The notes beneath the pieces were generated by a model. That model ran no database searches. It was not told the origin of the DNA and saw only the letters and a program-made list of their open reading frames with translations. This document shows, in pieces, positions 6,065 to 50,560 of a DNA stretch of 64,000 bases. Within the stretch, counting starts at the first letter, position 1, and every line of letters starts with the position of its first letter. The position numbers and the translations under genes were made by a program. Location: positions 4,288,001 to 4,352,000 of the forward strand of contig OZ241867.1 of NCBI GenBank assembly GCA_965203175.1, written 5' to 3'. The DNA is from Candidatus Latescibacterota bacterium. Its GTDB lineage: Bacteria > Latescibacterota > UBA2968 > UBA8231.

Positions 6065-6076
6065 GCGCCTTTTCCC

Positions 6077-8940: not shown

Positions 8941-8976
8941 GAAAAACCCCGTTGAGGATGCGAGGCGAAAGGGCCA

Positions 8977-9004
8977 AGTGTAAAAAAAAACGCCGGATTG
9001 TCAA
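8977..9004 (-). promoter_or_regulatory. Putative sigma70 promoter for the ABC transporter operon
   Basis: Minus strand TTGACA (9004-8999), 16 nt, TACACT (8982-8977), about 37 nt before the start at 8940. Confidence 0.55.
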
Positions 9005-9072
9005 TGTGGTAAAGAGGTGCTCTTGATCTTTAGAGAGATAACTATAACTAAAAATCGATAATAATAATTAGC

Positions 9073-9101
9073 TTGACAGGCAGGCGGACAGTCCATAGAT
9101 T
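9073..9101 (+). promoter_or_regulatory. Putative sigma70 promoter for the envelope cluster
   Basis: TTGACA (9073-9078), 17 nt, TAGATT (9096-9101), preceded by an AT-rich UP-like tract. RBS AAGGAGG lies before TTG 9156. Confidence 0.7.
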
Positions 9102-9155
9102 GAGCACTTCGTCTCTCGCTCTATCAACCTTGAACCTTGCCAAAGGAGGTTTCCC

Positions 9156-10055
9156 TTGAAGAGACTGAGTCTTATTGCCTTGGTCGCGGTGATGGCTGCT
9201 TCGGCTGCTTTCGCGCACCAGGCTAACTATTTCATGCCGCAGATTCCCAACCCCGACAACATGGTCGTTGACGGCAACGACGACGACTGGGGCTGGATCG
9301 ATCCGGCTTTTGCCATCAACCCGGACACCATGTACGAAATTCTCGGTAGTGAGTGGCCCCCGGCCAAAGACGACTGGGACTGCATTCTCTACGTGGCTTG
9401 GAGTTCGTCCCCCGACAATTCGCTCTACTACTTTGCTCGGGTTACCGATGACTCGCTGGGCCTCTTCGTCGAGAACCCCCAGGAGTATTGGAAGGACGAT
9501 TCGCTGGAAATCATCGTCGATGCCGACCACTCGAGCGAGAACTTCAACGAGACCGAGATGACCTCCGGCCAGCAGTACGGTATCCGCGTTCTGCCCGCCG
9601 CCGGTCAGAAGGACACTTGGATCTTCAACGTGCCGCAGGAGAGCATCCTGTGGTCCACCGAGCGTCCTTATTTCGTCTATGAGTGGACCCTCGATCCGCC
9701 GGACGCTCGTCCGATGGAACAGCCCGCTGGTAGCTCAGTGACCTATACCTACGAGGTCAAGCAGGCTGTGTGGACCTTCCACGACAAGACGGGTCCCGAT
9801 GGCAGCGCTCGCCACAACTTTGCCTCCGACCAGATCATCGGTCTGACCTTCCAGTTTGACGAGACCGAGAATCCCGAGGTGGGCCGCGAGAAGCAGCCGG
9901 GCACGACGCCGGTTAACGGCGCGTTCCAGGACAACTCGAACGGCTCGGACTTCATCACAGTGGAGACCGAAGGCGCTACGGGCGGCACGGGCGTTACCGA
10001 CACGTCTGTTGAGGCCGATAGCTGGGGTCGGATCAAAGGCTATATGATCCAATAA
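9156..10055 (+). CDS. Secreted CBM9/DOMON-like sugar-binding protein with C-terminal SWGRIK motif
   Basis: Signal peptide ending AFA. VVDGNDDDW and YWKDDSLEIIVDADH motifs resemble CBM9-like domains. G/T linker then TSVEADSWGRIK. Strong RBS. Confidence 0.6.
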   Translation: MKRLSLIALVAVMAASAAFAHQANYFMPQIPNPDNMVVDGNDDDWGWIDPAFAINPDTMYEILGSEWPPAKDDWDCILYVAWSSSPDNSLYYFARVTDDSLGLFVENPQEYWKDDSLEIIVDADHSSENFNETEMTSGQQYGIRVLPAAGQKDTWIFNVPQESILWSTERPYFVYEWTLDPPDARPMEQPAGSSVTYTYEVKQAVWTFHDKTGPDGSARHNFASDQIIGLTFQFDETENPEVGREKQPGTTPVNGAFQDNSNGSDFITVETEGATGGTGVTDTSVEADSWGRIKGYMIQ

Positions 10056-10177
10056 AGCACACCCCTAGCATTTTTCGCTAGGTAGCACATTGGACGTAGG
10101 TAGGTAAAGAGAGGTGGAGGTTGACTTCATCTCTCTTTATCTATCGCCTCTGCACCGTTTTCAGGAAGGCATTTTCA

Positions 10178-10924
10178 ATGAGGATACGGAACATCGCAAC
10201 GAGCGGGCTCTTGTCGGCCCTTTATCTGTTCGTGCTCGCCGGTTGTATCTCGCAGGTGGGGCTGCGGCGCTTTGCAACGTTCCCCGAGCCGGTTCCGCAA
10301 CAGGACGAGGCCATGACTGTCCTCGACGACGGCGCGATCGTCTATGCCAAGGATCGCTTGGAGATCTCGCTACAGGTGTTGGATGACGGATTCCTCAATC
10401 GCCAGTTCGCGGCGGATTCAAGGAAGGGCGCTGAATCGACCAATCCATACACGTATGGCAATTGGAAGCCTTGGGGCCAAGACTGGACTCCAGAGCGCTT
10501 TACCGTGGTCTTGCTGAAGGTCAAAAACTACGAGTATCCCAAGGTTTTCATCGACCCCAAGGCGCTCGTGATCACTACGTCGAACAACCGAGTGTACAAC
10601 GCGCTCGACAGCGGACAGCTTGAAGATCTCTTCAGCCCGTATCTGCGGGCTTATGCTGGCAACCAGCGGCGGCAGTTTGAGGCTACCACCGACCTGCTCA
10701 AACGCACTGTCTATCCGCCTGACATAATCTTTTCCGGTCAAGAGGAAGTCGGGTATATCGTCTTTCCGGTTTTGCACCGAGACGTGGGCAACTTCACCGT
10801 CAACGTGCCGGACATGGCCGTGCGCTTCGACTACAAGGGCGAACCGGTGGAGACCATTGATCTAGCATTCAAATTCCAACGCGAAATTTACCACGCACTT
10901 CATCCGCGCGCGGAGACGCCGTAA
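10178..10924 (+). CDS. Lipoprotein of unknown function
   Basis: ATG 10178 after AGGAAGG. Hydrophobic leader ending LAGC (lipobox). Stop overlaps the next ATG. Confidence 0.7.
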   Translation: MRIRNIATSGLLSALYLFVLAGCISQVGLRRFATFPEPVPQQDEAMTVLDDGAIVYAKDRLEISLQVLDDGFLNRQFAADSRKGAESTNPYTYGNWKPWGQDWTPERFTVVLLKVKNYEYPKVFIDPKALVITTSNNRVYNALDSGQLEDLFSPYLRAYAGNQRRQFEATTDLLKRTVYPPDIIFSGQEEVGYIVFPVLHRDVGNFTVNVPDMAVRFDYKGEPVETIDLAFKFQREIYHALHPRAETP

Positions 10925-12885
10925 TGAATCGGGGGACAGCCCGCATTGCGGCGCTGTTGTTCGCCTTGTGTGCCTATGCGCAGTGGCTCAGCGCCGACGA
11001 ATGGGTGCTCGGGGGGCATGGGTTTTCTTGGGGCGATCTCGTCGAGGTCCGCGCCCAGATCGACGATCAAAGTAGCCCTGGCGCGATTCAGATCCGCGGC
11101 TTTACGCCCGACGAGAACATCATCACCACGCTCTCTTGGAAATACGGCAAGCCCAACGATTTGGTCAGCGAGGGCAATGCGGCGCTGTGGGACAATACAG
11201 CGGCCAGGAATTCCATTTCGCTGTCGATTGTCGATGGCGACGACACCACAAGTACGGCAGACCTCTTTAAAACCGCTGGCGTCGATCAAGACGGGCGCAC
11301 GTTCTTTTTGGATATAGGCTCGCGCGTGCCGGCCGACAGCTTGGTCTTTTTTCCTCGGCAAGAGGGGACGTACGCCAACGGCAAGCCTTTTAGAGACGAC
11401 TTTGTCCGCAAGCACCGGATTTCCGTCAGCGATGGGCTGACGTACGTGAACGAGCAGCCACTCTTCACCTTACTGCGCGACGTCCCGGTGAACCCCAACA
11501 GTGTGTTCACTATGAAATTTCCCCAGCAGTTCATTCGCTTTATTCAGTTGCGCGTGGGGTCGCGGAGTCCCTTTGAAATTGCCGAATTTGAACTCTACGG
11601 TAACGGCTTCGTGCCGCGGGCCACGTACCGGAGCCAAGTTATCGACTTAGGCGAGGTCTCCAACTACGGCACCATATCTTGGGCCCAGCGGGCACTGGAA
11701 CTGGTGGACGGCGAGTTGATCGAGTTGTCGGATCTGGGGCAGACCTCGGTCGCGGTGCGCATGAAGACGGGACAGGACGACAGCCCGCTGGTTCACTTCC
11801 AAAAGGTTGTTGACGACGAAACGCGAGCCGTCAGCCAAGTAGTGGTCTCGGAAGCGGATTACAACAAGCTGCCCTCGGGCGAGAAGGGCGATATCGAGGA
11901 CGACGCTGACAACTGGAGTCCCTGGTCGTTGCCGCTCGAATCCGGGCAATTGATCCCACTGCCCAGCCCGCGCCCCTATTTTCAGCTACAGATTATCATG
12001 GAGAGCCAATCCGTGACGCAGACGGTGCGCATCGACTCATTGCGGATTGAGCATTCGCTACCCCCGGCTGCTGCAGTCGTCGGCGAGATCTCCTTGGCCG
12101 ACGAGCCCAACCCACCAGCCGACATCGGCGTAATCGACAAAGACGATGCCGTTGTGCTGCCGAGCATCGACGGGGGTGAAGAGGTGCTCTTCGCCTATGA
12201 TGTGCGAGCCATAATAAACAACAACCAGAACGGCTTTGATGCTTTGCGCATCGATACGCCGACGCCAGCGCGCTTTGTCGGCTTGCAGATGGGCGATCCG
12301 CTCGAGCCTGTGGAGCCAGATCGCGTGAGCGCGGGCGACAGAAGCATTGAAGTGATTTTCACTAGCAACAAGGTCACCTTTGACAACAATGTGCCACTAC
12401 GCGTGCTCTTTGAGGGATCGACCGTGGTATTCGGTACGATTTTCACTGGCACGGTCTGGGATACCCAGTCCGATATTCTCGGCCAGCCCGTGCTCGAAGG
12501 CGATGCCAATTTCGACGTCAGCACCAACTCGCTGCGCGTGGCCTTGACCCAGCAGTCCGTGGGCGAAATCGTCCGCGCTATAGAGTTTAATCCTTCGGTC
12601 TTCACGCCGAATGGAGATGGCATCAACGACCACATCGCCATCAAGTACACCGTAATTCAGATTTCCGAGCCCAAGCCCATCGAGGTGGCCATTTACGACT
12701 TAGCGGGTCGGCTGGTGCGCGTGCTGGCCGATCGCGATCAGCCCGGCGGAATTTACACCGAGATGTGGGACGGACGGAGCGATGTCGACGAGGCCGTGCC
12801 TCCAGGTAGTTACGTGGTTTCGCTCTCAGTTGATAGCGGGATCGGCAACTTCAGGCGAGTCGGCGTCGTCGGCGTGGCCTATTGA
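10924..12885 (+). CDS. Secreted protein with discoidin-like domain and C-terminal FlgD-Ig/CHU_C-like domain (AY-tail family, copy 1)
   Basis: Signal peptide. IVDGD...FFLDIG...FIRFIQL..EIAEFELYG pattern. FTPNGDGIND, IYDLAGRLVR, WDG, PPGSY. Ends VGVAY. Confidence 0.7.
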   Translation: MNRGTARIAALLFALCAYAQWLSADEWVLGGHGFSWGDLVEVRAQIDDQSSPGAIQIRGFTPDENIITTLSWKYGKPNDLVSEGNAALWDNTAARNSISLSIVDGDDTTSTADLFKTAGVDQDGRTFFLDIGSRVPADSLVFFPRQEGTYANGKPFRDDFVRKHRISVSDGLTYVNEQPLFTLLRDVPVNPNSVFTMKFPQQFIRFIQLRVGSRSPFEIAEFELYGNGFVPRATYRSQVIDLGEVSNYGTISWAQRALELVDGELIELSDLGQTSVAVRMKTGQDDSPLVHFQKVVDDETRAVSQVVVSEADYNKLPSGEKGDIEDDADNWSPWSLPLESGQLIPLPSPRPYFQLQIIMESQSVTQTVRIDSLRIEHSLPPAAAVVGEISLADEPNPPADIGVIDKDDAVVLPSIDGGEEVLFAYDVRAIINNNQNGFDALRIDTPTPARFVGLQMGDPLEPVEPDRVSAGDRSIEVIFTSNKVTFDNNVPLRVLFEGSTVVFGTIFTGTVWDTQSDILGQPVLEGDANFDVSTNSLRVALTQQSVGEIVRAIEFNPSVFTPNGDGINDHIAIKYTVIQISEPKPIEVAIYDLAGRLVRVLADRDQPGGIYTEMWDGRSDVDEAVPPGSYVVSLSVDSGIGNFRRVGVVGVAY

Positions 12886-12944
12886 TGGTTGATTGTGGTG
12901 CTGATGGTACTGACTGGCAAAAATTCAAAAGGGAGGATTCCAGC

Positions 12945-15575
12945 GTGAGGTGCATGCTCTACGCAGCAGTTGTCACAGCCGGCGTCGCACTCCTATGCGA
13001 TGCCGCTTTTGCCCAACGGGTCGGCTTTCTGACCGGACGCGAACCGCGCGGTGTGGATGTCTATGAGATGGCGATGACGCCGGCGCAGCGAAAGTGGCAG
13101 TATCCGCAAAGCCTGTATCACTTCTACCGTTGGACCGGCGAGGAATACAGCAATTACGCCCGCCAAAACTACGAGCGCTACGTATCTACCGAGCTTGAAG
13201 GCTTTCGCACCTACGACCTCTACGGGAACTATATCACTCGCGGTTTTGAGGTGTACAACTGGTCCATTGACAGTCCAGTGACTTCGGGCAGTACGGTGCG
13301 CAAGGGTCCCAAGTATGGGGGGTGGTTTCAAAGTTTGATCGTCTCGTCGATGTCCAAGGGGCAGTTTTATTCCTCAATGACCATTGGCGAGGCCCTGCGC
13401 ACCACCCTGACGCCGCTGACTTTTTCCAAGCCAGCCTTCAACGGGGTGCAGTGGGACTTTGCCGCCGACAAGTACCAGATGACACTCTTGGCGTCGCGCC
13501 TGGCCTCCCCGGGCTCAGCCGTGTCGTTTGAAAACTCAATCGGCCAGATATTGGGCGACATGACGAATCTCTTCGGCGTGCACTCTAAAGTGCAGCTCGG
13601 AGATTTTTCTAAGTTGGGCTTTACTTATCTCAACATTGCCAACTTCTCTACAGGTCGCAAGCTGGGTGCCAACTCGCTCAAAGGCGTGTTGACCGAGGCC
13701 CAAAACGGCGGCAATGTCGAGACGATCGTCCTGCGGCTCTCCGATGATTCGCCCGAAGACGGCGTAGGCGGTGCTCAGCTTTTTGCCGAGCGCATTATCA
13801 TCAACGGAGTCGATCACCCCGAAATCGTCCCCTCGCCGCGCGGAGGTGTGCGGCGCGCCGGCGTCATCGAGGCCAATGGTGCTGAGACGTTGGAGCTGAC
13901 CTACAACATTGCCCGCGACTTCCGCCAACAGCCCGATGACGAGATCACCACGTTTCAGGAAATCAGCGAGATCGAGTTCGAGTTGGTCATCGCCAACGAC
14001 TACCGGATCGAAATCACTTCTAACCTCCAAGTCAATGCCCAGGGCGAACCCGTGTTCTTGGAGGTCGAGCGCGCCCATGGCAACGTCAGCGATGGCTCTA
14101 ACCAACGCTTCATCCGCTTTGAATACGGCCTGCCCACCGGCAAGGATATCATCGGCTTCAACTTTGATATAGACGATATCAAGGGCTTCAATATGCGCTC
14201 GGAGCTTGCTTTCAGCCGGGCGTTTCGCCGCTTCCCCAACCAAAATTTCCAAGATCACGCTCTCGCCCAAGACCAGGGCATGGCCTATTACATCACGGCC
14301 TCGCAGGACGCTTATCCGTTTTTCGCGTACGGAGAATTCTACCGTCTAGAGCCTGAGTACCAGACCAATGCATTTATCTCGGATGCGCGGGGTTTCATCG
14401 ATTACGAGCACCCGGAGCGCTATTCCTTTGAGGCGGTTGACGACAACGACGACCAAGATCGCTTTGCCGACTGGAAGCGTCTGTGGCAAAACGGCGACAA
14501 CGCCTTTCGCGAATCGCCTTTTGGCACAGGTGGCCAAGCCGACCCGCAGGTTTTCCCTGGATATGACGAGAACGCGGACTTCATCTCGGACTTTAACCAA
14601 AACGACAACAGCGAGCCGGATTTCGCCGAGCCGTTTCTGCGCTACAACGTCGATCCACCCGAGTTCCTCTTCGGCGTTGACATGAACAACAACAACGTCA
14701 TCGACCGCTTTGAGAACGATACGTTCGCCGACTATCCCTACCGACACGACCGCGATGGCTACAACGTGTACGGGGGCGTTCACTTGACCGAAGCGATCAA
14801 GGCGACGATGGGCTACTCAACGGCCGACGAGATCAGTTCCAAGCGCAGCGCGCAGATGAGCTATGCGGTGGTCTCGGGCGAGTGGAAATGGCCGGGCATT
14901 GAGGCTCGGGCTTTCCAATACGCTCGCTCGGTCCAAGACGACATCGAAGACGATGTGATCCAATGGGTCGATCCAGATGGATTTCGCGAAACTATCGATC
15001 CGCTGATCGCCCAAGACACCTTTGTTTGGACTGGCTATCTGACGTTCGATTACCTGCGCCTTAAAAACCTGAACATCTACAACAAGGTGAAGTACGATTG
15101 GTTCAGGCAGCGCGGCGAGCAGGCCGAGGTCAAGGACGACCGCCTCTTCTTTGGCGCTATCAACAAGGTGGACTACCCCCTGCCGATTACTGACAACCTG
15201 TCTTTTTGGCCGCGTTACAAGAGCGTGTACCGCAAGATCAACCCGACCTTTAGCACTGACCTCGACATTACCGAATGGTCGCAGTTTTACATGCTGACCT
15301 CGAAGTACTTCCTCCTGCCCGGCACCTTTATCGAATACGGCGTCGAGTTAAACCTCTTCCGCAACCTTGAAGAGCGCCCAGAGATCTTGCCGCCTGGATA
15401 CGTCGATGACTTTACGGGTTCGGTGCTGGCCTTACAGCTTTCCAACAGGTCGGCGTACCTCGGTTATTCGCTGACTATGAATACGGGCTTTCGCTGGGAG
15501 CGCCGGGCCTTTGCCGAGGCGACCGAAACCAACTCTCTGCTCTTCATTCGGGTTTTCGCAGGCCTCCAAGACTAG
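12945..15575 (+). CDS. Large exported protein, probable outer-membrane beta-barrel with Ca-binding-type loops
   Basis: GTG 12945 after GGGAGG. Signal peptide ending AFA. Many alternating aromatic/hydrophobic strands, terminal strand LLFIRVFAGL. DxNxD/N motifs (DDNDDQD, DENADFISD, DMNNNNVID). Confidence 0.55.
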   Translation: MRCMLYAAVVTAGVALLCDAAFAQRVGFLTGREPRGVDVYEMAMTPAQRKWQYPQSLYHFYRWTGEEYSNYARQNYERYVSTELEGFRTYDLYGNYITRGFEVYNWSIDSPVTSGSTVRKGPKYGGWFQSLIVSSMSKGQFYSSMTIGEALRTTLTPLTFSKPAFNGVQWDFAADKYQMTLLASRLASPGSAVSFENSIGQILGDMTNLFGVHSKVQLGDFSKLGFTYLNIANFSTGRKLGANSLKGVLTEAQNGGNVETIVLRLSDDSPEDGVGGAQLFAERIIINGVDHPEIVPSPRGGVRRAGVIEANGAETLELTYNIARDFRQQPDDEITTFQEISEIEFELVIANDYRIEITSNLQVNAQGEPVFLEVERAHGNVSDGSNQRFIRFEYGLPTGKDIIGFNFDIDDIKGFNMRSELAFSRAFRRFPNQNFQDHALAQDQGMAYYITASQDAYPFFAYGEFYRLEPEYQTNAFISDARGFIDYEHPERYSFEAVDDNDDQDRFADWKRLWQNGDNAFRESPFGTGGQADPQVFPGYDENADFISDFNQNDNSEPDFAEPFLRYNVDPPEFLFGVDMNNNNVIDRFENDTFADYPYRHDRDGYNVYGGVHLTEAIKATMGYSTADEISSKRSAQMSYAVVSGEWKWPGIEARAFQYARSVQDDIEDDVIQWVDPDGFRETIDPLIAQDTFVWTGYLTFDYLRLKNLNIYNKVKYDWFRQRGEQAEVKDDRLFFGAINKVDYPLPITDNLSFWPRYKSVYRKINPTFSTDLDITEWSQFYMLTSKYFLLPGTFIEYGVELNLFRNLEERPEILPPGYVDDFTGSVLALQLSNRSAYLGYSLTMNTGFRWERRAFAEATETNSLLFIRVFAGLQD

Positions 15576-15601
15576 GGGCCGCACTATTTCTCTGTGGATC
15601 C

Positions 15602-15641
15602 AAAGCGCCCGGCGTTCTCTAGCGGAGATGCCGGGCGCTTT
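15602..15641 (+). terminator. Stem-loop (terminator or mRNA-stabilising hairpin) after the outer-membrane protein gene
   Basis: Perfect 12-bp inverted repeat AAAGCGCCCGGC / GCCGGGCGCTTT. Confidence 0.6.
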
Positions 15642-15653
15642 ACTGCCTAACAA

Positions 15654-16898
15654 ATGGACATGCGCCTTGCTGTGATGTGGATAGGGCTAGTCGGCCTTCT
15701 CGGAGGGATCGGCTGTGGTGCTCCGGAACGCCACGTCCTCAAAAAGCCTGCCACGCCCCAGTCCCTTGCATTCTACCAACGCGCCTACGGGCAAAATCCG
15801 GCAGACCCGGAAGTGCTCTTGGCCTTGGGGTGGCTCTACCTGCAAAAGGACCGCACGCGCCGCGCCGTTGATGTGCTGTCCGAACTGGTCGCGATCGCGC
15901 CCGACGACGCGGATGCTCACTACTACCTCGGGGTTGCCCTCGCCAAAGAGCACCGCAAGAGCGAGGCCATAGCTACCTTTAAGCACGCACTCGAAAAAGC
16001 GCCGGGCTTTGCCGAAGCGTACTGGGCCTTGGCGCTGCTATACAACGAGCGCGGCGACGGGTACGAAAAGGCGCTTGCAACGGTCGAAGAGGGGCTGCAG
16101 TTGGCCGGACAGAGCGGCTATGGGCACTTTGTGTTGGGATTTGTGCTGTGTTCGCGCGGCGACAATGAAAATGCCAAGACCGCGCTGCTGAAGGCGATTG
16201 AACTCGACCCTGACTTGGCACACGCCCACTACTACTTGGCGCTGGTGTACTTGCGCTTGCAGGACGATCCGCGGGCCATGGCGGCCATGGAGCAGACCAT
16301 TGCCGCAGACCCGGGTTACACCTCGGCCTATTACAGCTTGGGCACGCTCTATGCGCGCACGGGCCGCGACGCCGAGGGCGCGCGAATGATCGAACTTTTT
16401 CAGCAGTTGAGTAGCGCGACAATGGACGAGGACCACTACCGCCGCTTGCTCTATCGCCAGGCCGTGCCGCTGGCGACCGACAAGCAGGCTGCCACGCATT
16501 TCAACTTGGGGTTGGTCTATTTGCGCAGAAAGGAGTTGGCGGCGGCACTCGAACAGTTCGAGGCGGCCTTGGCCCTCGATTCCACGTATGCGGAGGCCAG
16601 CCACAACATTGGGGTGATCTATTCGCTGCAAGAGCAACACGCGGCTGCTCGGCCCTTTTTGCTGCGCGCGGTCCGCCACAAGCCCGACTACGCGTTGGCC
16701 TTTGAAAACATAGGCAACAACAGCTTGGCCCTCGGCGAGTACGCAGAGGCGGTCGCTGCGTTTCGCCGCGCCTTGTCCCTCGACGGGAGCATGGCCTCAG
16801 CCCTCGACGGCTTGGGGACTGCGCTAATCCAGCAGGGCCAAGTGGCAGAAGGCCGCGCGGCTCGTGCCGAGGCCGCAGCCTTGAGGGCGCAACAGTAA
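15654..16898 (+). CDS. Tetratricopeptide-repeat lipoprotein
   Basis: Leader ending GIGC. Repeated 34-aa units (AHYYLGVAL, AYYSLGTLY, HFNLGLVY). Confidence 0.85.
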   Translation: MDMRLAVMWIGLVGLLGGIGCGAPERHVLKKPATPQSLAFYQRAYGQNPADPEVLLALGWLYLQKDRTRRAVDVLSELVAIAPDDADAHYYLGVALAKEHRKSEAIATFKHALEKAPGFAEAYWALALLYNERGDGYEKALATVEEGLQLAGQSGYGHFVLGFVLCSRGDNENAKTALLKAIELDPDLAHAHYYLALVYLRLQDDPRAMAAMEQTIAADPGYTSAYYSLGTLYARTGRDAEGARMIELFQQLSSATMDEDHYRRLLYRQAVPLATDKQAATHFNLGLVYLRRKELAAALEQFEAALALDSTYAEASHNIGVIYSLQEQHAAARPFLLRAVRHKPDYALAFENIGNNSLALGEYAEAVAAFRRALSLDGSMASALDGLGTALIQQGQVAEGRAARAEAAALRAQQ

Positions 16899-23362: not shown

Positions 23363-23399
23363 ATTTTTTATACTATATAGTCTAGCGGGAGAAGAAGTT

Positions 23400-25451: not shown

Positions 25452-25462
25452 GGGAAGCACTC

Positions 25463-27919: not shown

Positions 27920-27949
27920 ACTTACAACGACCCGCAGGAGCTTGAAGCC

Positions 27950-28612
27950 ATGTCGAACCTCGTGAGCATTTCCGCGCTAGCGGTACTCATCGCGCTCACG
28001 GCCTGCGCCCAAGGATCGGGCGCGAGGGCCAAACGCCAGTTGAACTTATCCGAGCGAGTGTTATCGGAGGCCCCGCCCAGCGTTACCGAGGGACAGATCG
28101 GGCCTTTGCTGATCCGGGGCCGCTCGGCCTATCAGAACAAAATCGAAAGGGCAATAGTGCGCGCCCAAACGCCGCCGCTGGAAGATCACGGTCTATTCGC
28201 CTTTTTCGGCACTGTTAATAAAAGCTACCTCCGCTCGCAGGTGACAGACCTCCATCTGGCGATCATCCCCCGTCTCATCAGGGAATTGCAAAGCAAAGGC
28301 GACGCCTTTAGGAGCAAAAATGTATCGCCTGAGTTCGCGGTTTCATTTGTGGTAACAGACCTCCATTTCTGGCAACAAATAACCCCGTCCCAAGTAATCA
28401 CTAGGAACCATCGGGCGGGCCACGGCCACATGCACTTGGAGCTAGAAATAAGGCACTTGGCAACCAACAAGGTGGAAGCGACGCATGTTCTGATCGGGCA
28501 AGTGGAAAAACCCGAGTCAGCCGGCGTGTACACTGTGGATGATCTACTCGATGAGGTCGCACAGCAGACGGGTGAGACTGTCGTAGAATTCATGAGGTCG
28601 TTGGAACTGTAA
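27950..28612 (+). CDS. Lipoprotein of unknown function
   Basis: AGGAG RBS, lipobox LTAC, fills the gap between paralogs. Confidence 0.65.
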   Translation: MSNLVSISALAVLIALTACAQGSGARAKRQLNLSERVLSEAPPSVTEGQIGPLLIRGRSAYQNKIERAIVRAQTPPLEDHGLFAFFGTVNKSYLRSQVTDLHLAIIPRLIRELQSKGDAFRSKNVSPEFAVSFVVTDLHFWQQITPSQVITRNHRAGHGHMHLELEIRHLATNKVEATHVLIGQVEKPESAGVYTVDDLLDEVAQQTGETVVEFMRSLEL

Positions 28613-28669
28613 AACCTTCTGGTGATGAGAAGTTTTACTTCAATATCAACGAGGCTTGCAGTAGCATGC

Positions 28670-31018
28670 ATGATCGAGAGACGCGGGATTTACTGCGTGC
28701 TCACGGCCCTGTTCATCTGCGGTGTTAGCCATGCCGAAGAAATCCGCTTCGACTCCCCGGCCGAGTGGGCGACTTGGGAGGTTCCGGTTGATATCGTCCA
28801 GTTTGCAGACGACGGCTCGCTAGAGCTGAGAAAATTCCGCAAGGAAATCAACGCCACTCTTGATGCTCATCTTTTCACCCAACCCACTCAGACCCGTGGC
28901 AAGGTCCAGGGGGGGATCTGGCAGGTCGGATCCAATCCGACGGCGGCCCGACGCATCATGGACGGCAATCTGGAGACGGTGTGGCGACCTAGTCAAGCCG
29001 ACGACTTGGTCGATTGGGTGGTGACCATCGACTTGGGGCGGCCCGTGCTAGCCGAGCGCATCCGCTTGGTGTTTCCCGACCGCGCAGGAGCGCGTCCTTG
29101 GCGGCAATTTAGCGTTTTCACGGCCAATGGTGCGCGCATCCAATCCACGGATGACGTCTTCAAATTCGACCAAGCCTTTCAGACGACTCAGCCCAACCAA
29201 GAGCAGGTCGTCGATATCGAACTGGTCGGCGAGCGCGACGTAACGCGGGTCATTGACGAAAACCTCGGGCTGGATCCAGCCGCGCTAAATACCTTCCGCA
29301 TGGTGCGCTTTGTGCGCGTGCGCGCCGACGAAAAAAGTGCGGATGCAGCTTTGGCCGAAGTGGAGGTGGTCGCCGCAGGCGACAACATAAGTCTCGGAGT
29401 CTTGGCGCGCGGCGGCAGCTTCGACAATGGACTTTTGGCGCGCGAGCCGCAGAATATGTTCGACGGCATCACCGACACGTACGGCAATATATTCACTGTT
29501 AAGACTAAGGGCGGCTGGCGCGAGAGTGGGGTGTGGTGGTCGGTTGATTTAGGGGCGCTGTTCTGGCTCGACGAGGCATTCATCTACTGGCAGGATCGCG
29601 GCGAGGGCCTGTCGAGCTTCCTATTCGAGGGATTGCAGGCTGGTTCTGGATACCAAATCCTCTTTTCCGATGGGCGGCGCACCATTGCCGGCGACATCGA
29701 CTACACGCCGCTGATCTTCGAGCCAAGGCCAGTCGGCGCGGAGTGGAACTTGCGCCACCATCGCTACGCGTTTGCTCCGCGCAAGATCCGCTACTTGTTC
29801 TGGCATTCGCTGACCGATACGGGCTGGTTTTCCCACCCCATGGAGTTGATGCTGTTCTCGCCGGGCTATCCCGCGCAGGTGGTATTGCTCTCGGACTTTA
29901 TCGACCTCGGCCAACTCGCTGGCGATGGCCGCGCCAAGGCCATCAAGCGCTTGCTCTGGGAGGCGACAACGCCGGATCAGACGCGGTTACAGGTGCGCTC
30001 GCGGTCGGGCAATACCCTGCAAGAGTTCTACACGTTCTACGATAAAAAGGGTGAGGAAGTCACCGAGACGCGCTACGGGAGCCTGCCCAAAGTCATCCGC
30101 GGCCCCATTGACACCACGGTCGTCGTAGGAGCCGATTGGGGCGCGTGGAGCAACTTCTACCAGTTTTCCGGCGAGGCGTTTAAGTCGGAGACGCCACGCC
30201 GCTTTATCCAATTGGAGTTGATTCTCTCTACGGAGGATCCCGCTGTCGCACCGGTGCTACACGCGCTGGCACTGGATTTTGAGGATGCGCTGGTCTCGCA
30301 GGCGGCTGGACAGGTTGCTCCGCGCTATGTCGTACCCAACGAGGCGACGCGGTTTACGTATGCGCTGCGGACGAGCGCAACGGAGGGCGATTCAGGGTTT
30401 GACCGGATGCGCTTTTCTACGCCTAGCGCTGTGGATGCAGCAGATGTGCGGCTGTGGATTGGTGGTGCGGCGCACGAGCCGAGTGCCGTGCGGGTAGTGG
30501 GGGATTCGCTGCTGTTTGTCGATTTGCCGGAGACGGTGCGGACGGATTCTGTCACCGTGGAATTCACCACTAAGGTCCTGCGCAACGCCACGGTTTTTGC
30601 CGCGGACTTAGGGCAAGAAGCACGTCCTGATCTGTGGCAGTCGGTGGAAGCGGCTGAGCGGCAATCGAACTTGGTGTTTCTGCCGGATTTACCCGGCAGC
30701 GAGCGGTTGATCGGCGATTTGCAGGTTGTGCCGCCGGTGTTTTCGCCCAACGGCGATGGGATCAACGACCACGTGCAGATACACTTTGCGCTGTTTAAGG
30801 CGGTGGATGCGTCTCCGAGCGTGCGCATTTTCGATTTGGCGGGGAGGGAAGTGGCGGTTCTTACTTCGTCGGGTGCGGATGTGTTGCAGTCGTTTAGTTG
30901 GGATGGATTGGATGCGTCGGGTGAGTGGGTGGCACCGGGCGTTTACGTATGCCGCATTGCTGCGGGAGCCGATGCTGGGCAGGGAGAAGTAGTGCGCACC
31001 CTAGCTGTAGCCTATTGA
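28670..31018 (+). CDS. Secreted AY-tail family protein (copy 4)
   Basis: Collinear with copy 3. Signal peptide ending SHA. FSPNGDGIND. Ends LAVAY. Start uncertain (28622-28670). Confidence 0.7.
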   Translation: MIERRGIYCVLTALFICGVSHAEEIRFDSPAEWATWEVPVDIVQFADDGSLELRKFRKEINATLDAHLFTQPTQTRGKVQGGIWQVGSNPTAARRIMDGNLETVWRPSQADDLVDWVVTIDLGRPVLAERIRLVFPDRAGARPWRQFSVFTANGARIQSTDDVFKFDQAFQTTQPNQEQVVDIELVGERDVTRVIDENLGLDPAALNTFRMVRFVRVRADEKSADAALAEVEVVAAGDNISLGVLARGGSFDNGLLAREPQNMFDGITDTYGNIFTVKTKGGWRESGVWWSVDLGALFWLDEAFIYWQDRGEGLSSFLFEGLQAGSGYQILFSDGRRTIAGDIDYTPLIFEPRPVGAEWNLRHHRYAFAPRKIRYLFWHSLTDTGWFSHPMELMLFSPGYPAQVVLLSDFIDLGQLAGDGRAKAIKRLLWEATTPDQTRLQVRSRSGNTLQEFYTFYDKKGEEVTETRYGSLPKVIRGPIDTTVVVGADWGAWSNFYQFSGEAFKSETPRRFIQLELILSTEDPAVAPVLHALALDFEDALVSQAAGQVAPRYVVPNEATRFTYALRTSATEGDSGFDRMRFSTPSAVDAADVRLWIGGAAHEPSAVRVVGDSLLFVDLPETVRTDSVTVEFTTKVLRNATVFAADLGQEARPDLWQSVEAAERQSNLVFLPDLPGSERLIGDLQVVPPVFSPNGDGINDHVQIHFALFKAVDASPSVRIFDLAGREVAVLTSSGADVLQSFSWDGLDASGEWVAPGVYVCRIAAGADAGQGEVVRTLAVAY

Positions 31019-33404
31019 GGTGGATTAGAGCGGTATGAGGTGGAGAAAATACAGGGTTTGCCATTTGCTCTTGGGCCTGTTCATCTGTGGTGCGAGCCGA
31101 GCGGAGGAAGTTCGTTTCGACACTCCGGAGGCGTGGGAGGCTTGGGATATCCCGGTAGATATCGTCCAGTTTGCGGACGACGGTTCGCTGAAGTTGAAGA
31201 AATTTCGCAAACAGATCAACGCTGTCCTCGACGCACCCCTCTTCACTCATCCCTCTCAGAAGCGCGGCGAGGTCCAGGGCGGGATATGGAGTGCCGGTAG
31301 CAACGAGGTGGACGCGCCCAAGCTCATAGATGGCGATCCAGCGACCTATTGGCAGCCCGATGTAGCAGACCAGCTCGTCGATTGGTCGGTCGGTATCGAC
31401 TTGGGAAGGCCGGTACTGGCGCGGGAGATCAAGCTGATATTCCCCGACGAAGAGGGCGCTCGGCCCTTGCGGCAGTTTAGCGTCTTTGTCACTCAGGGTG
31501 CCCGGATTCAGTTCCGGGACGACGTGTTCCGCTATCGCAAGATCTTCCAGACGACCAAGCCCAATACCGAGACTACCATTGCGATTCCGCTGCTAGGCAG
31601 TGCGCTGGATACCACGCGGGTGCTTGATGAGGACAGAGACGTTGACTTGAATGCCGAGCAGGACTTCCAGATGGTGCGGCTAATCCGCGTCGTCGCCGAT
31701 GAGCAAAGCAGCGATGCAGCCCTAGCCGAAATTGAAGTCCTCGCCCAGGGGGACAACGTCAGCTTGGGGACTTTGGAACGAGGTGGGCGCTTTGAACACG
31801 GCTTGCTGGCGCGCGAGCCGCAGAACATGTTCGACGGCAATATGGACACCTTCGGCAATATTCTCACCTCGGGGGGGACCAAGGGCGGCTGGCGCGAGGG
31901 CGGGCTATGGTGGCAGGTGGATTTGGGTGCACTGTTCTGGATCGACGAGATGTTTATATATTTTAAAACTCGGGGTGAGGGCATGTCGAGTTTCTTGTTC
32001 GAAAGGCTGCACCACGGAAGCGGTTACAACATCCTGTTCTCAGACGGGCGGCTCACCACGGGCGGAGATTTGGATCTGACCTTCCTGCTGCGCGAGGACA
32101 TCGCCATTAACGCGGCGTCGGCAGCCGCACGGGGGATTCGCCACATCCGCTATCTTTTTCAGCCGCGCAAGATCCGCTACATCTTCTGGCACGGCCATCT
32201 GGATCAAGGCTGGTTTTCGCATCCAACGGAATTTATGCTGTTTTCACCGGGCTATCCCGCGCAGGTGGTGTTGCTCTCGGGCTTTATCGATCTCGGCCAA
32301 CTCGCCGGAGACGGCCGTCCCAAGGCTATTAGGCGTTTGCGCTGGGAGGCGACAACGCCCGATCTGACGCAGTTGCAGGTGCGCTCTCGGTCGGGCAATA
32401 CCCTGCAAGAATTCTACACGTTCTACGACAAAAAGGGTGAGGAAGTCACCGAGACGCGCTATAACAGCCTGCCCAAAGTCATCCGCGGTCCCATCGACAC
32501 CATGGTCGTCGTAGGAGCCGATTGGGGCGCGTGGAGCAACTTCTACCAGCTTTCCGGCGAGGCGTTTAAGTCGGAGACGCCGCGCCGTTTTATCCAGTTG
32601 GAGCTGATTCTTTCCACCGAGGACCCCGCTGTCGCACCGGTGTTGCACGCGCTGGCACTGGATTTTGAGGATGCGCTGGTCGCACAGGCGGCTGGGCAAG
32701 TTATGCCGCGCCATGCCGTACCCAACGAGGCGACGCGGTTTACGTATGTGCTGCGGACGAGTGCGGCTGCGGACGACTCGGGCTTTGACCGGTTGCGCTT
32801 TTCCACGCCGAGTGCTGTGGATGCAGCAGACGTGCGGCTGTGGATTGGTGGTGCGGCGCACGAGCCGAGTGCCGTACGCGCGATGGGGGATTCGCTACTT
32901 TTTGTAGATTTACCGGAGACGGTGTGGACGGATTCTGTCACCGTGGAATTCACCACTAAGGTCCTGCGCAACGCCACGGTTTTTGCTGCGGACTTAGGGC
33001 AAGAAGCGCGTCCTGATCTGTGGCAGTCGGTAGAGGCAGCCGAGCGGCAAGCGAACTTGGTGTTTCTGCCGGATCTACCCGGCAGCGAGCGGCTGATCGG
33101 CGATTTGCAGGTTGTGCCGCCGGTGTTTTCACCCAACGGCGATGGCATCAACGACCACGTGCAGATACGCTTTGCGCTGTTCAAGGCGGTGGATGCGTCT
33201 CCGAGCGTGCGCATCTTTGACTTGGCAGGTCGGGAAGTAGCGGTGCTGATGCCGTTTGGTAGGGATGTATTGCAGTCGTTTAGTTGGGATGGATTGGATG
33301 CATCGGGTATTCGGGTCGCGCCTGGGGTGTACGTGTGCCGCATTGACGCGGGAGCCGATGCCGGACAGGGGGAAGTAATGCGTACCCTAGCCGTAGCCTA
33401 TTGA
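29861..33404 (+). repeat. Direct repeat of about 1.16 kb: 29861-31018 and 32247-33404 (3' halves of copies 4 and 5)
   Basis: Near-identical DNA with the same 2386-nt offset at both ends, from CCGGGCTATCCCGCGCAGGT to GCCTATTGA. Confidence 0.9.
31035..33404 (+). CDS. Secreted AY-tail family protein (copy 5)
   Basis: Close paralog of copy 4. Signal peptide ending SRA. FSPNGDGIND. Ends LAVAY. Confidence 0.75.
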   Translation: MRWRKYRVCHLLLGLFICGASRAEEVRFDTPEAWEAWDIPVDIVQFADDGSLKLKKFRKQINAVLDAPLFTHPSQKRGEVQGGIWSAGSNEVDAPKLIDGDPATYWQPDVADQLVDWSVGIDLGRPVLAREIKLIFPDEEGARPLRQFSVFVTQGARIQFRDDVFRYRKIFQTTKPNTETTIAIPLLGSALDTTRVLDEDRDVDLNAEQDFQMVRLIRVVADEQSSDAALAEIEVLAQGDNVSLGTLERGGRFEHGLLAREPQNMFDGNMDTFGNILTSGGTKGGWREGGLWWQVDLGALFWIDEMFIYFKTRGEGMSSFLFERLHHGSGYNILFSDGRLTTGGDLDLTFLLREDIAINAASAAARGIRHIRYLFQPRKIRYIFWHGHLDQGWFSHPTEFMLFSPGYPAQVVLLSGFIDLGQLAGDGRPKAIRRLRWEATTPDLTQLQVRSRSGNTLQEFYTFYDKKGEEVTETRYNSLPKVIRGPIDTMVVVGADWGAWSNFYQLSGEAFKSETPRRFIQLELILSTEDPAVAPVLHALALDFEDALVAQAAGQVMPRHAVPNEATRFTYVLRTSAAADDSGFDRLRFSTPSAVDAADVRLWIGGAAHEPSAVRAMGDSLLFVDLPETVWTDSVTVEFTTKVLRNATVFAADLGQEARPDLWQSVEAAERQANLVFLPDLPGSERLIGDLQVVPPVFSPNGDGINDHVQIRFALFKAVDASPSVRIFDLAGREVAVLMPFGRDVLQSFSWDGLDASGIRVAPGVYVCRIDAGADAGQGEVMRTLAVAY

Positions 33405-33412
33405 GGAATGCC

Positions 33413-35296
33413 ATGACTGTCGCTCCAGCGGTGTATCGCGATCAGAAGTGGATCATCTCGCCTTTTGGCGACCTGTTCTTTTTTATTGGCACGCCGCTTT
33501 TGTGCTTGGTGACCATGTTGCCATTGCGGGCCGTGTTCGACTCGCAGACCATCGCCTTCTACGCGCTGGCGCTGTTTGCCACCGGCCACCACCTGCCGGG
33601 CTTTATGCGCGCATACGGCGACCCAGAGCTATTCAGCACCTTCAAGGAGAAGTTCCTCGTTGCGCCGGTCGTCGTGCTCATCGTGACGGCGCTGGCGCAA
33701 TTCAATACCCTGCACGGGCTTTTCCTGATGGTACTAGTGTGGGAGATCTGGCACCTCTTTATGCAGCACTACGGCATCATGCGGATCTACGATGCCAAAA
33801 ACAAGATCTTCTCCAAGCTCGACGCTCGGCTCGACTGGCTGCTGACCTTGTGTGCCTTTGCAACAGTGGTCATCTATAGCCCCGAATACTTCCACCGCAT
33901 CCTCGACCACAACCAGCGGGTTGGCGTGCCCTTCCTGTCGGCCGAGTTGACGTTCCTGCTCAAAAAGGTGCTGTTCTATGTTACGATGGCCGTGCTTGCG
34001 GCGTACTTGGCCAACATCGGCCGGCGGGCGATCACCGGTCAGAAGATAAGCCTGCCCAAAATCGCGGTGATGGCGACTACGGTGTTCATCATCTATTACG
34101 GCTGGATACATATCAACGATCTCGTCATCGGCTATGCGGCTTTTGCCGTTTTTCACGATATCCAGTACTTCGCCATCGTCTGGGTCTACAACAACAACCT
34201 CGTCAAAAGGCAGGAGCGAACTACCAAGCTCCTGCGCACCTTTTTCACTACGCGCACCTTGCCGATACTGGTCGCGTACGTGCTTGTTTGCTTTGCCTAC
34301 GGCAGCATCAACATGATGGAGGGCTTTCTCAAGTCCGAGCAGGCGATCAAAATGGTCGAGATCTTCGTCATCACCTCGACGCTTTTGCACTACTATTTCG
34401 ATGGGTTCATCTGGAAAATCCGCGACCGCAAAAACCAAGCCAATCTGGGGATCAACGCCGAAGAGGGGGCGGACCGCATTGGATTGCGGGCGTTGACTGG
34501 CGGCTTGGCCTCGTACTTTCGCGAGACGGGCCGCCAGTTGGCCTATTTTGCGGTGCCGGTGGTGGCGCTCTCGCTTTTCCAGTTTTACTGGACGGCCGAT
34601 GAGGCCGAGGCGCGGGAGAAGATGGTCGAATTGTTTCCGGACTTGGCCGGTGCCCACAACAATCTCGGCGTCTTCTATGCGCGGCAGGGAGATTGGGAGA
34701 GAGCTGCCGGCGAATATCAGCGGGCGCTAGAGCTGGATGCGGGAGCCTATGAGGCGCACAAAAACCTCGGTTTACTCTACGCGCGACGGGGACTACGGGA
34801 CGATTGGGAAAAGGCGCATATGCACTACCAGCAGGCGATAGACCACAAGCCGCGCTACGTCGAAGCGCTCAACGCGCAGGGGTTGATCTTTTTGGAGCGG
34901 GGCGAGTTCGCCAAGGCCGAAGAACGCTTCCGCGAGGCCCTCGACGAATTTGACTATGCCCCGGCATACAACAACCTCGGTACGGCCTATTTGCAGATGG
35001 GAGACTTTCCGCAGGCGATCTCCGCCTACGAAAAAGCCGTCGCGCTCGACCGGGCCGACGCCTCGCACCACTTCAACTTGGGGTTAGCTTTGCAGAAGGC
35101 CGGAGAGAACGAGCAGGCGGTTGCCTCGTTTGCCTCAGCACTCTCTTTAGATCCGCGCCACGTCAAAGCTTATTTGAGCATGGCGCTTTCCTACCAGCGG
35201 CTGGGTCACCTCGCTGAGGCGCGGCAGGCGCTGCAGCAGTTGTTGGTGGTGGATCCGAACCACGCCACAGCAGCGCGGCTATTGGCCCGGTTGTGA
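33413..35296 (+). CDS. Polytopic membrane protein with His motifs fused to C-terminal TPR domain
   Basis: Many hydrophobic helices with GHH, WHLFMQHYG, FHDIQY, LHYYFD, followed by TPRs (AHNNLG, AHKNLG, AYNNLG, HFNLG). ATG 33413 after GAGG. Confidence 0.75.
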   Translation: MTVAPAVYRDQKWIISPFGDLFFFIGTPLLCLVTMLPLRAVFDSQTIAFYALALFATGHHLPGFMRAYGDPELFSTFKEKFLVAPVVVLIVTALAQFNTLHGLFLMVLVWEIWHLFMQHYGIMRIYDAKNKIFSKLDARLDWLLTLCAFATVVIYSPEYFHRILDHNQRVGVPFLSAELTFLLKKVLFYVTMAVLAAYLANIGRRAITGQKISLPKIAVMATTVFIIYYGWIHINDLVIGYAAFAVFHDIQYFAIVWVYNNNLVKRQERTTKLLRTFFTTRTLPILVAYVLVCFAYGSINMMEGFLKSEQAIKMVEIFVITSTLLHYYFDGFIWKIRDRKNQANLGINAEEGADRIGLRALTGGLASYFRETGRQLAYFAVPVVALSLFQFYWTADEAEAREKMVELFPDLAGAHNNLGVFYARQGDWERAAGEYQRALELDAGAYEAHKNLGLLYARRGLRDDWEKAHMHYQQAIDHKPRYVEALNAQGLIFLERGEFAKAEERFREALDEFDYAPAYNNLGTAYLQMGDFPQAISAYEKAVALDRADASHHFNLGLALQKAGENEQAVASFASALSLDPRHVKAYLSMALSYQRLGHLAEARQALQQLLVVDPNHATAARLLARL

Positions 35297-42495: not shown

Positions 42496-42552
42496 ATAGG
42501 CGGTGGAGCAAAGAGCAGCGAGTACAGCAAATAAGAGGTAATGGGCGAACAT
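40456..42552 (-). CDS. Glucose/sorbosone dehydrogenase-like protein with T9SS type-A-like tail, no heme domain
   Basis: Paralog of 37516-40437 lacking CXXCH. Tail FALAQNFPNPFN...ASGAYLYQL...LMLLK. Signal peptide ending AYA. Confidence 0.8.
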   Translation of the reverse strand: MFAHYLLFAVLAALCSTAYADPQATRDDIEISRILNVPRGTVRIAKDPRNNALYTLRQNGSIDRIGLATAAHTPAYSRDDHGIRSGFTGFAIGPDGSFYLASNRRGPRDSGHFALVRGILLDADTGERQWEQLDPDNLPANVPIDDILTATSLGRDPTTDIRYALKTNGDITLVPKGTVYTAADHGFSRPSALFIDADGIFYVLKRIDLSSYNIATITKGEVDPSSGEEWYVFHDKQGRIITEKKWYSFPKAQRGQVDTMIVSTERTWFTLAETAPYERCDCIFNHEVNGLVVSPDNRSLFINSGSRTDHGEVQDGNRQFPDLRETALTAIVLRVPTDARDLVLPNDRDDLRAQGFLFAEGLRNAYDLAFAPNGDLFATENGPDRDMAEELNWLREGHHYGFPWRMGLEDTPQQFPDYDPASDFLLPARFTAVREGYYHNDPTYPPPPRDFTEPVINLGPDADAYRDPADGHLKDASEEGVRFGTFTAHRSPLGLVFDANNALAEPFQGDGFVLSWTEGDPDGDDVAGPFNDPSEDLLHLDLAKVGDNYEARVTRIVGGFSNPIDAEIIGNRIYVIEWGGGRGLWEIVLPQAATETAIAEAEGVVPAEFALAQNFPNPFNASTTITFQLGLPSRVELSIYSINGQRVRTLISDSLPAGHHRLQWDGRNERGESVASGAYLYQLSAGDFVATRQLMLLK

Positions 42553-49177: not shown

Positions 49178-50556
<1,379 letters not shown>

Positions 50557-50560
<4 letters not shown>

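Follow-up and report, generated by a model that had tools for sequence, protein, structure and literature searches.

A window of 64,000 nucleotides from the genome of a Candidatus Latescibacterota bacterium (contig OZ241867.1, positions 4,288,001 to 4,352,000) contains, at 9156-35296 on the + strand, one copy of a cell-envelope gene module with two central products. One is BAR, a predicted large outer-membrane beta-barrel of an unnamed and undescribed family; the other is AY, a family of lectin-like proteins with a C-terminal domain (CTD) of the type IX secretion (T9SS) kind that ends in tyrosine. The host, judged from how close homologs are named, is a sponge-associated Latescibacterota/Gemmatimonadota-type bacterium of the Fibrobacterota-Chlorobiota-Bacteroidota (FCB) group, and its genome holds 62 BAR genes and 168 non-overlapping AY genes together with 59 CRTAC1, 34 double-parvulin, 17 CBM9-like and 17 Lip2 genes. 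These six families occupy 660,702 bases, equal to 10.0% of the genome, about one-tenth of which is thus spent on a set whose central member has no name, family model or solved relative. A preliminary description of this DNA had proposed an undescribed secretion system. This part of the proposal is not supported, because the tag lies within the T9SS CTD superfamily and genes for SprA, PorU and a PorV-like protein are present in the genome, so that export maps onto a described system, the T9SS. What appears to be new is the barrel family, the Tyr-ended class of CTD, the presence of several cargoes per barrel and the expansion to a tenth of the genome; a literature search that did not extend to subscription journals or to supplementary files brought up no description of a module of this kind in Latescibacterota or Gemmatimonadota. 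As to function, a reading given nearly an even chance here is that the AY lectins leave the cell through SprA and are then received and held by BAR.

Copies of the module within and between genomes

Copy numbers were obtained by tblastn of the window proteins against the genome, a single contig of 6.58 Mb, at a coverage of at least 50%, and each AY query gave between 124 and 155 hits. The 62 BAR genes lie in 41 clusters, which also contain 280 unassigned ORFs. The arrangement of the genes is far beyond chance, with one gene set found again in all 41 clusters. Immediately upstream of BAR on the same strand stands an AY gene in 43 of the 62 cases and another BAR gene in 14, and in three cases the closest family gene is over 1.5 kb distant. 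AY genes occur within 10 kb of 60 of the 62 BAR genes. Counted from the side of the partners, 120 of 168 AY, 29 of 34 parvulin, 14 of 17 Lip2, 12 of 17 CBM9-like and 29 of 59 CRTAC1 genes stand within 10 kb of a BAR gene, a distance that takes in 15% of the genome. Several architectures are recurrent, such as CBM9-Lip2-AYa-AYb-AYc-BAR, AYa-AYc-AYa-BAR-BAR-PPI and PPI-AYc-BAR-AYa-AYa-BAR (where PPI is the double-parvulin gene and a, b and c are AY types), and the recurrence of such fixed architectures indicates that the module has spread by whole-cluster duplication. One canonical CBM9-Lip2-AY-AY-AY-BAR operon is located at 6391008-6401683 of the genome contig. The copy in the window is a rearranged version of the module. 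Its first gene, g01, is also the first gene in the canonical operon CBM9-Lip2-AY-AY-AY-BAR, but the order in the window is CBM9-Lip2-AYa-BAR, then TPR-CRT-CRT-TPR-PPI (CRT, CRTAC1-type propeller), then AYb-AYc-L12-AYc-AYc (L12, the lipoprotein gene g12). The last two AY genes, g13 and g14, share 77% identity, and g14 is a recent tandem duplicate of g13. Elsewhere in the genome, BAR genes often stand in tandem pairs or triplets, for example at 901780-925655, 3657027-3673696, 5381196-5395047 and 6154657-6164882 of the genome contig (G000:C1), which hints at hetero-oligomeric barrels or at two barrel subtypes.

Within the same phylum, 151 genomes were sampled. BAR was found in 94 of them and AY in 92, with an identical pattern over families: both occur in 63 of 63 genomes of the family to which the window belongs and in none of the 30 and 19 genomes of two families of the same class. 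Adjacency of AY and BAR is visible in the coordinates of further genomes, among them G121, G131, G141, G064 and G128. The SprA_N domain is more widespread, with matches in 143 of the 151 genomes, including families that lack BAR and AY. The components of the module thus recur together both within the genome and across related genomes, in agreement with the lineage-specific functional module that the preliminary description had envisaged. In public data, the BAR family comprises 970 representatives (50% identity, E<=0.001), 309 of them at E<=1e-30. For P0010, a homolog of BAR, the protein Atlas shows only nameless Gemmatimonadota and Latescibacterota clusters, and the nearest cluster with a name is DUF6029 (0.89), which is to be taken as a lead only.

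Near-identical DNA is present in sponge metagenomes and sponge metatranscriptomes, and homologs of the family also carry names from non-sponge sources, namely marine and groundwater metagenome-assembled genomes. Contigs of four sponge RNA libraries from two studies cover g01 to g04 and other genes with 95-99% likeness; they leave some bins of 9001-29000 uncovered, and these uncovered parts are uninformative. The RNA contigs are compatible with transcription of the module in situ, for which they are weak evidence, DNA carry-over being possible. In each of the four runs, the RNA contigs that cover g01 at 9001-9700 are far deeper than those on the remaining genes of the row, and contig depth cannot rank genes.

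The tyrosine-ended tag and the secretion system of the host

The five tagged proteins of the row (g03, g10, g11, g13 and g14) are homologous along their whole length and end in V/I/L-A-Y. A C-terminal Tyr is present in 168 of the 168 AY-family frames of the genome, preceded by Ala in 109, Val in 50, Ile in 5, Ser in 3 and Thr in 1, and Y653 is nearly invariant in a 41-row alignment of the family. Where the C-terminal domain begins, a PNGDGxND stretch is conserved, which is typical of type B CTDs too. The shared C-terminal tag of the preliminary description is recognisable, since it matches CHU_C, FlgD_ig and PorU-type CTDs. Domain scans were carried out on 37 open reading frames (ORFs) of the window. 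With CHU_C (PF13585, cut-off 27 bits), g03 (34.4), g13 (28.7) and g10 (28.1) score above the cut-off and g14 (26.7) and g11 (23.6) below it. Further Pfam and NCBIfam matches of the tagged C-termini are to FlgD_ig and to PorU and PorZ CTDs, and the profile of g03 finds Ig domains of FlgD (E 3e-9) and, weakly, the PorU CTD. None of the five proteins passes the type B model TIGR04131 (cut-off 35 bits; best scores 24.1, 19.0 and 17.3), and with the type A models TIGR04183/PF18962 g03 reaches 17.9 bits (cut-off 23) and the remaining four proteins give no match. The product names that public pipelines assign to homologs of AY include 'gliding motility-associated C-terminal domain-containing' and 'FlgD immunoglobulin-like domain containing'.

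Apart from PorU, a search of the genome with the PorU model retrieved 50 CTD-like hits. Thirty-seven have K, R, E or P as the last residue (typically in LLLK) and 13 have Tyr; 12 of the latter overlap the AY family and one does not. A G-x-Y-x-Y-R strand is common to the Tyr-ended CTDs and to the type A CTDs with a K/R end. AlphaFold2 models g03 at pLDDT 88.7, with the final ~105 residues forming seven strands. Judged from these comparisons, the AY tag is a class of its own, specific to the lineage, within the T9SS CTD superfamily.

The remainder of the AY proteins is of lectin type. The fold of g03 matches galactose-oxidase domain 1, CBM32, F-lectin and the b1b2 jelly rolls of neuropilin, as well as Ig/Fn3 domains and the PorU CTD; its likeness to CBM32 is seen both in the profile search (E ~1e-3 to CBM32-type chains) and in the fold search (2v72, TM 0.71). 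Three of its paralogs, g11, g13 and g14, match the F5/8 type C family (PF22633) directly, with 49, 32.3 and 32.9 bits. No catalytic domain was seen in the tagged proteins. AY proteins are non-catalytic and lectin-like, consisting of CBM32/discoidin and Ig-like domains followed by a seven-strand T9SS-type CTD, and the preliminary description had been right to call the subunits lectin-like.

It had also been said that no recognisable T9SS core gene was present. This is true of the 37 scanned ORFs of the window but not of the genome, which encodes elsewhere PorU (632 bits, cut-off 420), an SprA_N domain in a frame of 2133 aa (82 bits, cut-off 27) and, directly after PorU, a PorV-like protein (147.5 bits, E 1e-42; under the cut-off of 250). 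A genome search for PorP/SprF (TIGR03519) gave nothing over the cut-off, the only match, of 21 bits, not being at BAR. T9SS genes outside Bacteroidota, including in Gemmatimonadetes, are noted in PMC11285876.

The barrel and its possible role

BAR, the product of g04 (12882-15575, +; probable start 12954, 873 aa), carries the signal peptide MLYAAVVTAGVALLCDAAFA. Its AlphaFold2 model, built on a 36-row alignment, is mostly beta, with long antiparallel strands over residues ~160-871, and the protein ends in a barrel strand. Over this range pLDDT is mostly 70-90 in blocks of 10 residues, except for a low-confidence loop at 495-600, and a beta domain at ~240-375, confidently modelled, is inserted between barrel strands. 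Foldseek returned mostly large outer-membrane barrels at TM 0.2-0.3, with MtrB at E 1.8e-8 and with SlpA, FimD/PapC (E 1.6e-5), LptD and TonB-dependent transporters on the list. VIA, which is independent of Foldseek, gave outer-membrane barrels for 50 of the 50 matches listed, at Z 11-15 and with none standing out; they include Omp85/TpsB proteins (CdiB Z 14.7, FhaC 14.4, TamA 14.3), porins, PapC, LptD, MtrB (Z 13.3, 379 aligned), the SusC-like chain BT1762 (Z 13.3, 385 aligned) and TonB-dependent transporters (Z ~12). Likeness to the TonB-dependent/SusC folds is generic only, at Z 10.7-13.3 and a root-mean-square deviation of 11-13 A. From the barrels that align over their full length, a strand number of roughly 22-26 is predicted. 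The ~880-aa 'probable outer-membrane protein' of the preliminary description is thus given a beta-barrel fold by AlphaFold2 and two fold searches. No family could be attached to it: no NCBIfam model matched at E<=0.01, PorP/SprF (TIGR03519) included, and a sequence search of the PDB with the BAR profile gave chance antibody hits only (E 0.45). The most conserved parts of the protein are residues 16-164, that is, the N-terminal ~140 aa, and the acidic, D/N-rich stretch 495-560. These two parts contain many invariant D, N, W and Y residues and are modelled worst, with pLDDT below 50, which hints that they might fold only with a partner or bound metal ions. A complex prediction of BAR (21-873) with the CTD of g03 (540-653) scored 0.00 in both runs, made without controls, and speaks neither for nor against contact.

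According to the favoured reading, AY proteins would be exported by Sec and cross the outer membrane via the single SprA translocon of the genome, and they would not be passed to PorV/PorU as K/R-ending type A cargo is. BAR, encoded in the same locus, would receive them and hold them at the surface, filling the place that PorP/SprF shuttles have for type B cargo in Bacteroidota. The SurA-like double-parvulin protein may chaperone the barrel, the cargo or both in the periplasm, and the CBM9-like protein, Lip2 and the TPR/CRTAC1 pairs would be accessory envelope parts. The likely purpose of such an assembly would be the capture of glycans or glycan-coated particles, with dozens of specificities. 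This anchor or shuttle role is favoured by the cargo-then-barrel gene order, the CHU_C-like CTD, the many cognate sets and the nearby TPR and propeller genes.

The comparators for this reading are the type B cargo and PorP/SprF pairs SprB/SprF and Fjoh_3952/3951 of Flavobacterium johnsoniae and PG1035/PorP of Porphyromonas gingivalis. In F. johnsoniae (PMC12618676), no type B cargo can do without its cognate PorP/SprF shuttle, whose gene lies directly downstream and whose amounts are stoichiometric, and some type B operons hold a PorE homolog that anchors the complex. The module resembles these systems in that the cargo CTD matches CHU_C (over the cut-off in three of the five proteins), the gene for an outer-membrane barrel follows directly downstream of the cargo gene, a genome has many cognate pairs and the cargo is adhesin- or lectin-like. 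PorE, a TPR and propeller protein that is often found in type B operons, is echoed here by the TPR and CRTAC1 pairs (PMC12618676). The analogy to T9SS cargo-PorP/SprF pairs that the preliminary description had drawn holds for gene order, the cargo standing directly upstream of the barrel gene in 43 of 62 cases, with a barrel that is not PorP/SprF. In contrast to PorP/SprF, BAR is ~875 aa long, belongs to an unnamed family and has no detectable PorP/PorV homology. Two or three cargo genes per barrel are found here, the barrels are often in tandem, and the AY CTD, which remains under the TIGR04131 cut-off, is predicted to be a seven-strand sandwich with an invariant Tyr end. The scale also differs, with 168 cargo genes here, in a host outside Bacteroidota, against 12 reported for F. 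johnsoniae.

Several observations weigh against the anchoring of SprA-exported lectins by BAR. The AY CTD is below the NCBIfam cut-offs for both type B (24.1 against 35) and type A (17.9 against 23), and its predicted seven-strand sandwich is unlike the four-strand sheet predicted for Flavobacterium type B CTDs (PMC12618676). An hhalign comparison of BAR with two PorV-like proteins of the genome gave a probability of 0.8%; BAR is ~2.5 times as long as the 325-378-aa PorV/PorP-like frames of the genome, and neither its inserted domain nor its conserved N-terminal part is obviously needed by an anchor. GldM was looked for in the genome and not found, in a search whose controls were silent as well. 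One genome, G015, which is 96% complete, has weak BAR and AY matches and no SprA_N match, and the 151 genomes are kin, so that counts among them are descriptive and not independent. Finally, the analysis shows domain content, barrel fold, CTD homology, a T9SS in the genome, gene order, copy number and co-distribution, and export by SprA and contact between BAR and the CTD are, like the ligand class and the roles of the accessory genes, inferred from these. If BAR were nevertheless the cognate partner of a T9SS-type cargo, cargo classes read by different shuttles would exist beyond Bacteroidota, PorP/SprF would be replaceable by an unrelated barrel, and the Tyr that ends every AY protein would provide a simple sorting signal open to test.

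The job of the barrel might instead be uptake, as in polysaccharide utilisation loci (PULs), an explanation that is unlikely but carries serious weight. BAR would then be an import channel and functional counterpart of SusC, in which no TonB plug is recognisable; its surface binding or lid proteins would be Lip2, the CBM9-like protein and the AY lectins, and captured oligosaccharides would reach the periplasm through BAR and then the ATP-binding cassette (ABC) importers. The T9SS would merely place AY on the surface, and the difference from the favoured reading lies in what the barrel does. Such a role would suit the very large size of BAR and its full-length alignments to 22-26-strand barrels (MtrB, SusC-like BT1762, TonB-dependent transporters); the conserved N-terminal ~140 aa and the inserted beta domain could gate the lumen. 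The partners are of lectin/CBM type, the 62 barrels are an expansion on the scale of PULs, and paralogs of the ABC importer lie within 10 kb of BAR in four of four cases for PermB, two of two for the substrate-binding protein and two of three for PermA (against 15% of the genome). Like a PUL, the module sets a large barrel beside several non-catalytic glycan-binding surface proteins in dozens of paralogous loci, sometimes with an inner-membrane importer adjacent. However, no Plug, TonB_dep_Rec or SusD-like match was found by Pfam at E<=10, and the module differs from PULs in lacking a TonB plug match, a SusD fold and lipoprotein surface glycan-binding proteins, its binding proteins being T9SS-tagged and not lipidated. 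Nine BAR clusters mapped in full revealed no conserved extra gene in the canonical operons (the domain scans did not extend to the additional ORFs). Nor was a regulator linked to the module, the genome's ten Reg_prop/Y_Y_Y sigma-54 regulators all lying more than 20 kb from BAR. An importer lies near only 4 of the 41 clusters, and the idea of the preliminary description that the module feeds the adjacent importer is accordingly left halfway, with all four PermB paralogs close to BAR and most clusters without one; the link of the module to the importer is modest. Uptake also leaves the cargo-then-shuttle gene order and the invariant terminal Tyr unexplained. Were BAR to import as well, a PUL-like system would have been built on different parts, and the question bears on the glycan feeding or attachment of uncultured sponge and marine FCB bacteria. 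A rather doubtful combination of both jobs is that a giant, gated BAR takes the tagged lectins by their Tyr-ended strand and conducts substrate, or exports the lectins itself. If true, BAR would define a new class of outer-membrane machine, the module would be a third way, next to SusC/D utilisomes and anchoring by PorP/SprF, of making a surface apparatus specific for its substrate, and the FCB group would have a PUL equivalent that evolved from secretion parts.

Export without SprA is very improbable. BAR would be in that case a usher-like or two-partner-like translocon that exports and assembles AY by itself, with the parvulin protein as dedicated chaperone and the terminal Tyr strand as a recognition or beta-augmentation signal. 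FimD/PapC ushers do occur in the Foldseek list (E 1.6e-5) and CdiB, FhaC and TamA are among the best VIA matches, but these fold matches are generic, with TM 0.2-0.3 and with porin, Omp85 and TonB-dependent Z values tied within ~1. A beta domain is inserted between the strands of BAR, as the usher plug is likewise inserted between barrel strands, and the terminal aromatic residue that is invariant in all 168 AY frames resembles the beta-signal of outer-membrane proteins. The large barrel with its inserted domain, the periplasmic chaperone gene (29 of 34 within 10 kb of BAR) and the paralogous Ig-domain subunits in one operon recall chaperone-usher pili (FimD/PapC). In contrast to these pili, the module has no usher or PapD-like family match and no C-terminal usher domains, and the AY subunits have complete Ig folds and lectin domains. 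No match of BAR to fimbrial usher, POTRA or TpsB families was found in Pfam, and the CTD of AY, a homolog of T9SS signals, is a complete Ig-like sandwich that needs no donor strand. Genome G015, in which BAR and AY match weakly and SprA_N not at all, would fit SprA-independent export, although SprA is present in 88 of 94 BAR-positive genomes and five of the six others are at most 80% complete. It is also improbable, if somewhat less so, that the same machinery serves adhesion to, or recognition of, sponge matrix or other cells, with the paralogs as a source of variation, and not nutrient capture. The type B cargoes of Flavobacterium are known or predicted adhesins (PMC12618676); the near-identical DNA in sponge metagenomes and metatranscriptomes, a eukaryote-like leucine-rich-repeat protein encoded 8 kb downstream and the g13/g14 tandem duplication (77% identity), which points to ongoing diversification, go in the same direction. 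Against adhesion, the family also occurs in homologs named from marine and groundwater sources, and the linkage to ABC importers better fits feeding.

Gene row and neighbouring genes

All 15 co-oriented envelope genes that the preliminary description listed at 9156-35296 are present on the + strand, with Pfam results that agree with the gene list, and a signal peptide, lipobox or transmembrane helices are visible in each of the translations, as it had stated. For g02, g04 and g10 the export signal requires a start shifted to an internal Met, at ~10175, 12954 and 23397, respectively. Neighbouring genes abut, share 4-11 nt or leave gaps of at most 78 nt. Upstream of the row, a sigma-70-like promoter candidate at 9073-9101 (+) consists of TTGACA, a spacer of 17 nt and TAGATT (10 of 12 positions match), with AAGGAGG and the TTG start codon of g01 after it. 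Facing the ABC importer is a divergent site at 9004-8977 (-). These are the sole strong sigma-70-like sites of the region, both consensus matches only, and they lie in the 8940-9156 spacer, pointing divergently to g01 and to the importer. Terminator scans of the window remained at about chance level, and among the hairpins listed none falls in a + strand intergenic spacer.

The row opens with g01 (9156-10055), a secreted CBM9-like protein whose match to PF06452 (CBM9_1; 27.1 bits, cut-off 23.4) is partial, covering profile positions 41-87 of 185 only. It is followed by the Lip2 lipoprotein g02 (10121-10924; probable start near 10175, lipobox LAGC) and by g03 (10924-12885), the type a AY lectin-like surface protein, which scores 34.4 bits with CHU_C and 28.6 with FlgD_ig and ends in GVAY. 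Downstream of BAR, two TPR lipoproteins recognised by Pfam TPR and a lipobox, g05 (15654-16898) and g08 (20221-21609), flank two CRTAC1-type FG-GAP propellers, the lipoprotein g06 (16899-18590; FG-GAP_3 155 bits, UnbV_ASPIC 78 bits) and g07 (18587-20224; 161 and 69 bits). A periplasmic double-parvulin foldase/chaperone of SurA/PrsA-like type, g09 (21599-23362), contains two Rotamase stretches. Its SurA/PrsA matches in NCBIfam are weak and under the cut-offs; with the SurA equivalog NF008038 it reaches 45 bits against a cut-off of 394, the common part being the two parvulin domains only. The AY type b protein g10 (23283-25451; probable start 23397) scores 28.1 bits with CHU_C and 30.1 with FlgD_ig and ends in NIAY. 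Three type c proteins come next: g11 (25448-27919), with two F5/8 type C domains (F5_F8_type_C_2) and the end VEVAY, g13 (28622-31018), with an F5/8 type C domain, the CTD and the end LAVAY, and g14 (31035-33404), which is just under the CHU_C cut-off. Between the first two lies g12 (27950-28612), a single-copy lipoprotein. Two orphan lipoproteins had been described, but g02 is not an orphan, having 17 copies in the genome. Neither g02, g04 nor g12 has a Pfam or NCBIfam family, even at E<=10 in Pfam, and at the same threshold Pfam finds nothing on the N-terminal bodies of g03 and g10 or on the membrane part of g15.

This last gene, g15 (33401-35296), encodes a polytopic membrane domain of ~390 aa fused to TPR, the only part recognised by Pfam. 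Its family has three copies in the genome, one of them near BAR; g15 is loosely tied to the module and is not counted as core. Homologs occur in Latescibacteria, Gemmatimonadota, Handelsmanbacteria and Planctomycetota, and in none of them does the membrane part have a Pfam family. The membrane domain (33401-34570, +) contains several conserved His-containing stretches, and the homologs are nearly always TPR fusions.

On the other side of the promoter spacer, divergent to g01, lies a CUT1-type ABC importer at 4583-8940 (-), with a substrate-binding protein and two permeases, which is the possible downstream partner discussed above. At the far end, a CRTAC1-family paralog with an N-terminal extension (35311-37485, -) is convergent to the row. 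It is followed by two paralogous GSDH/PQQ-type propeller proteins, at 37516-40437 (-) and 40456-42552 (-), with type A CTDs that end in LLK and score 31.5 and 35 bits with TIGR04183 (cut-off 23). The first of them also contains an SO2930-type dihaem cytochrome c part (TIGR03806, 235 bits, under the cut-off of 313). Their domain content suggests that the two products may be surface-displayed dehydrogenases beside the lectin module. The leucine-rich-repeat protein mentioned above is encoded at 43635-45425 (-), in a stretch of lower GC (0.53 vs ~0.60), and a eukaryote-like repeat protein at this position fits a host-associated lifestyle. A gene at 45868-49113 (-) encodes a sigma-54 activator with fused Reg_prop and Y_Y_Y domains, sensors of the type seen in hybrid two-component PUL regulators of Bacteroides, and has the ten genome paralogs counted above. 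A scan of the window for sigma-54 promoters gave 37 matches against 34 expected, that is, no signal, and so provides no link between the module and this nearby activator. Two tandem genes for MiaB-like radical-SAM methylthiotransferases (UPF0004, Radical_SAM and TRAM) are found at 49178-51882 (-).

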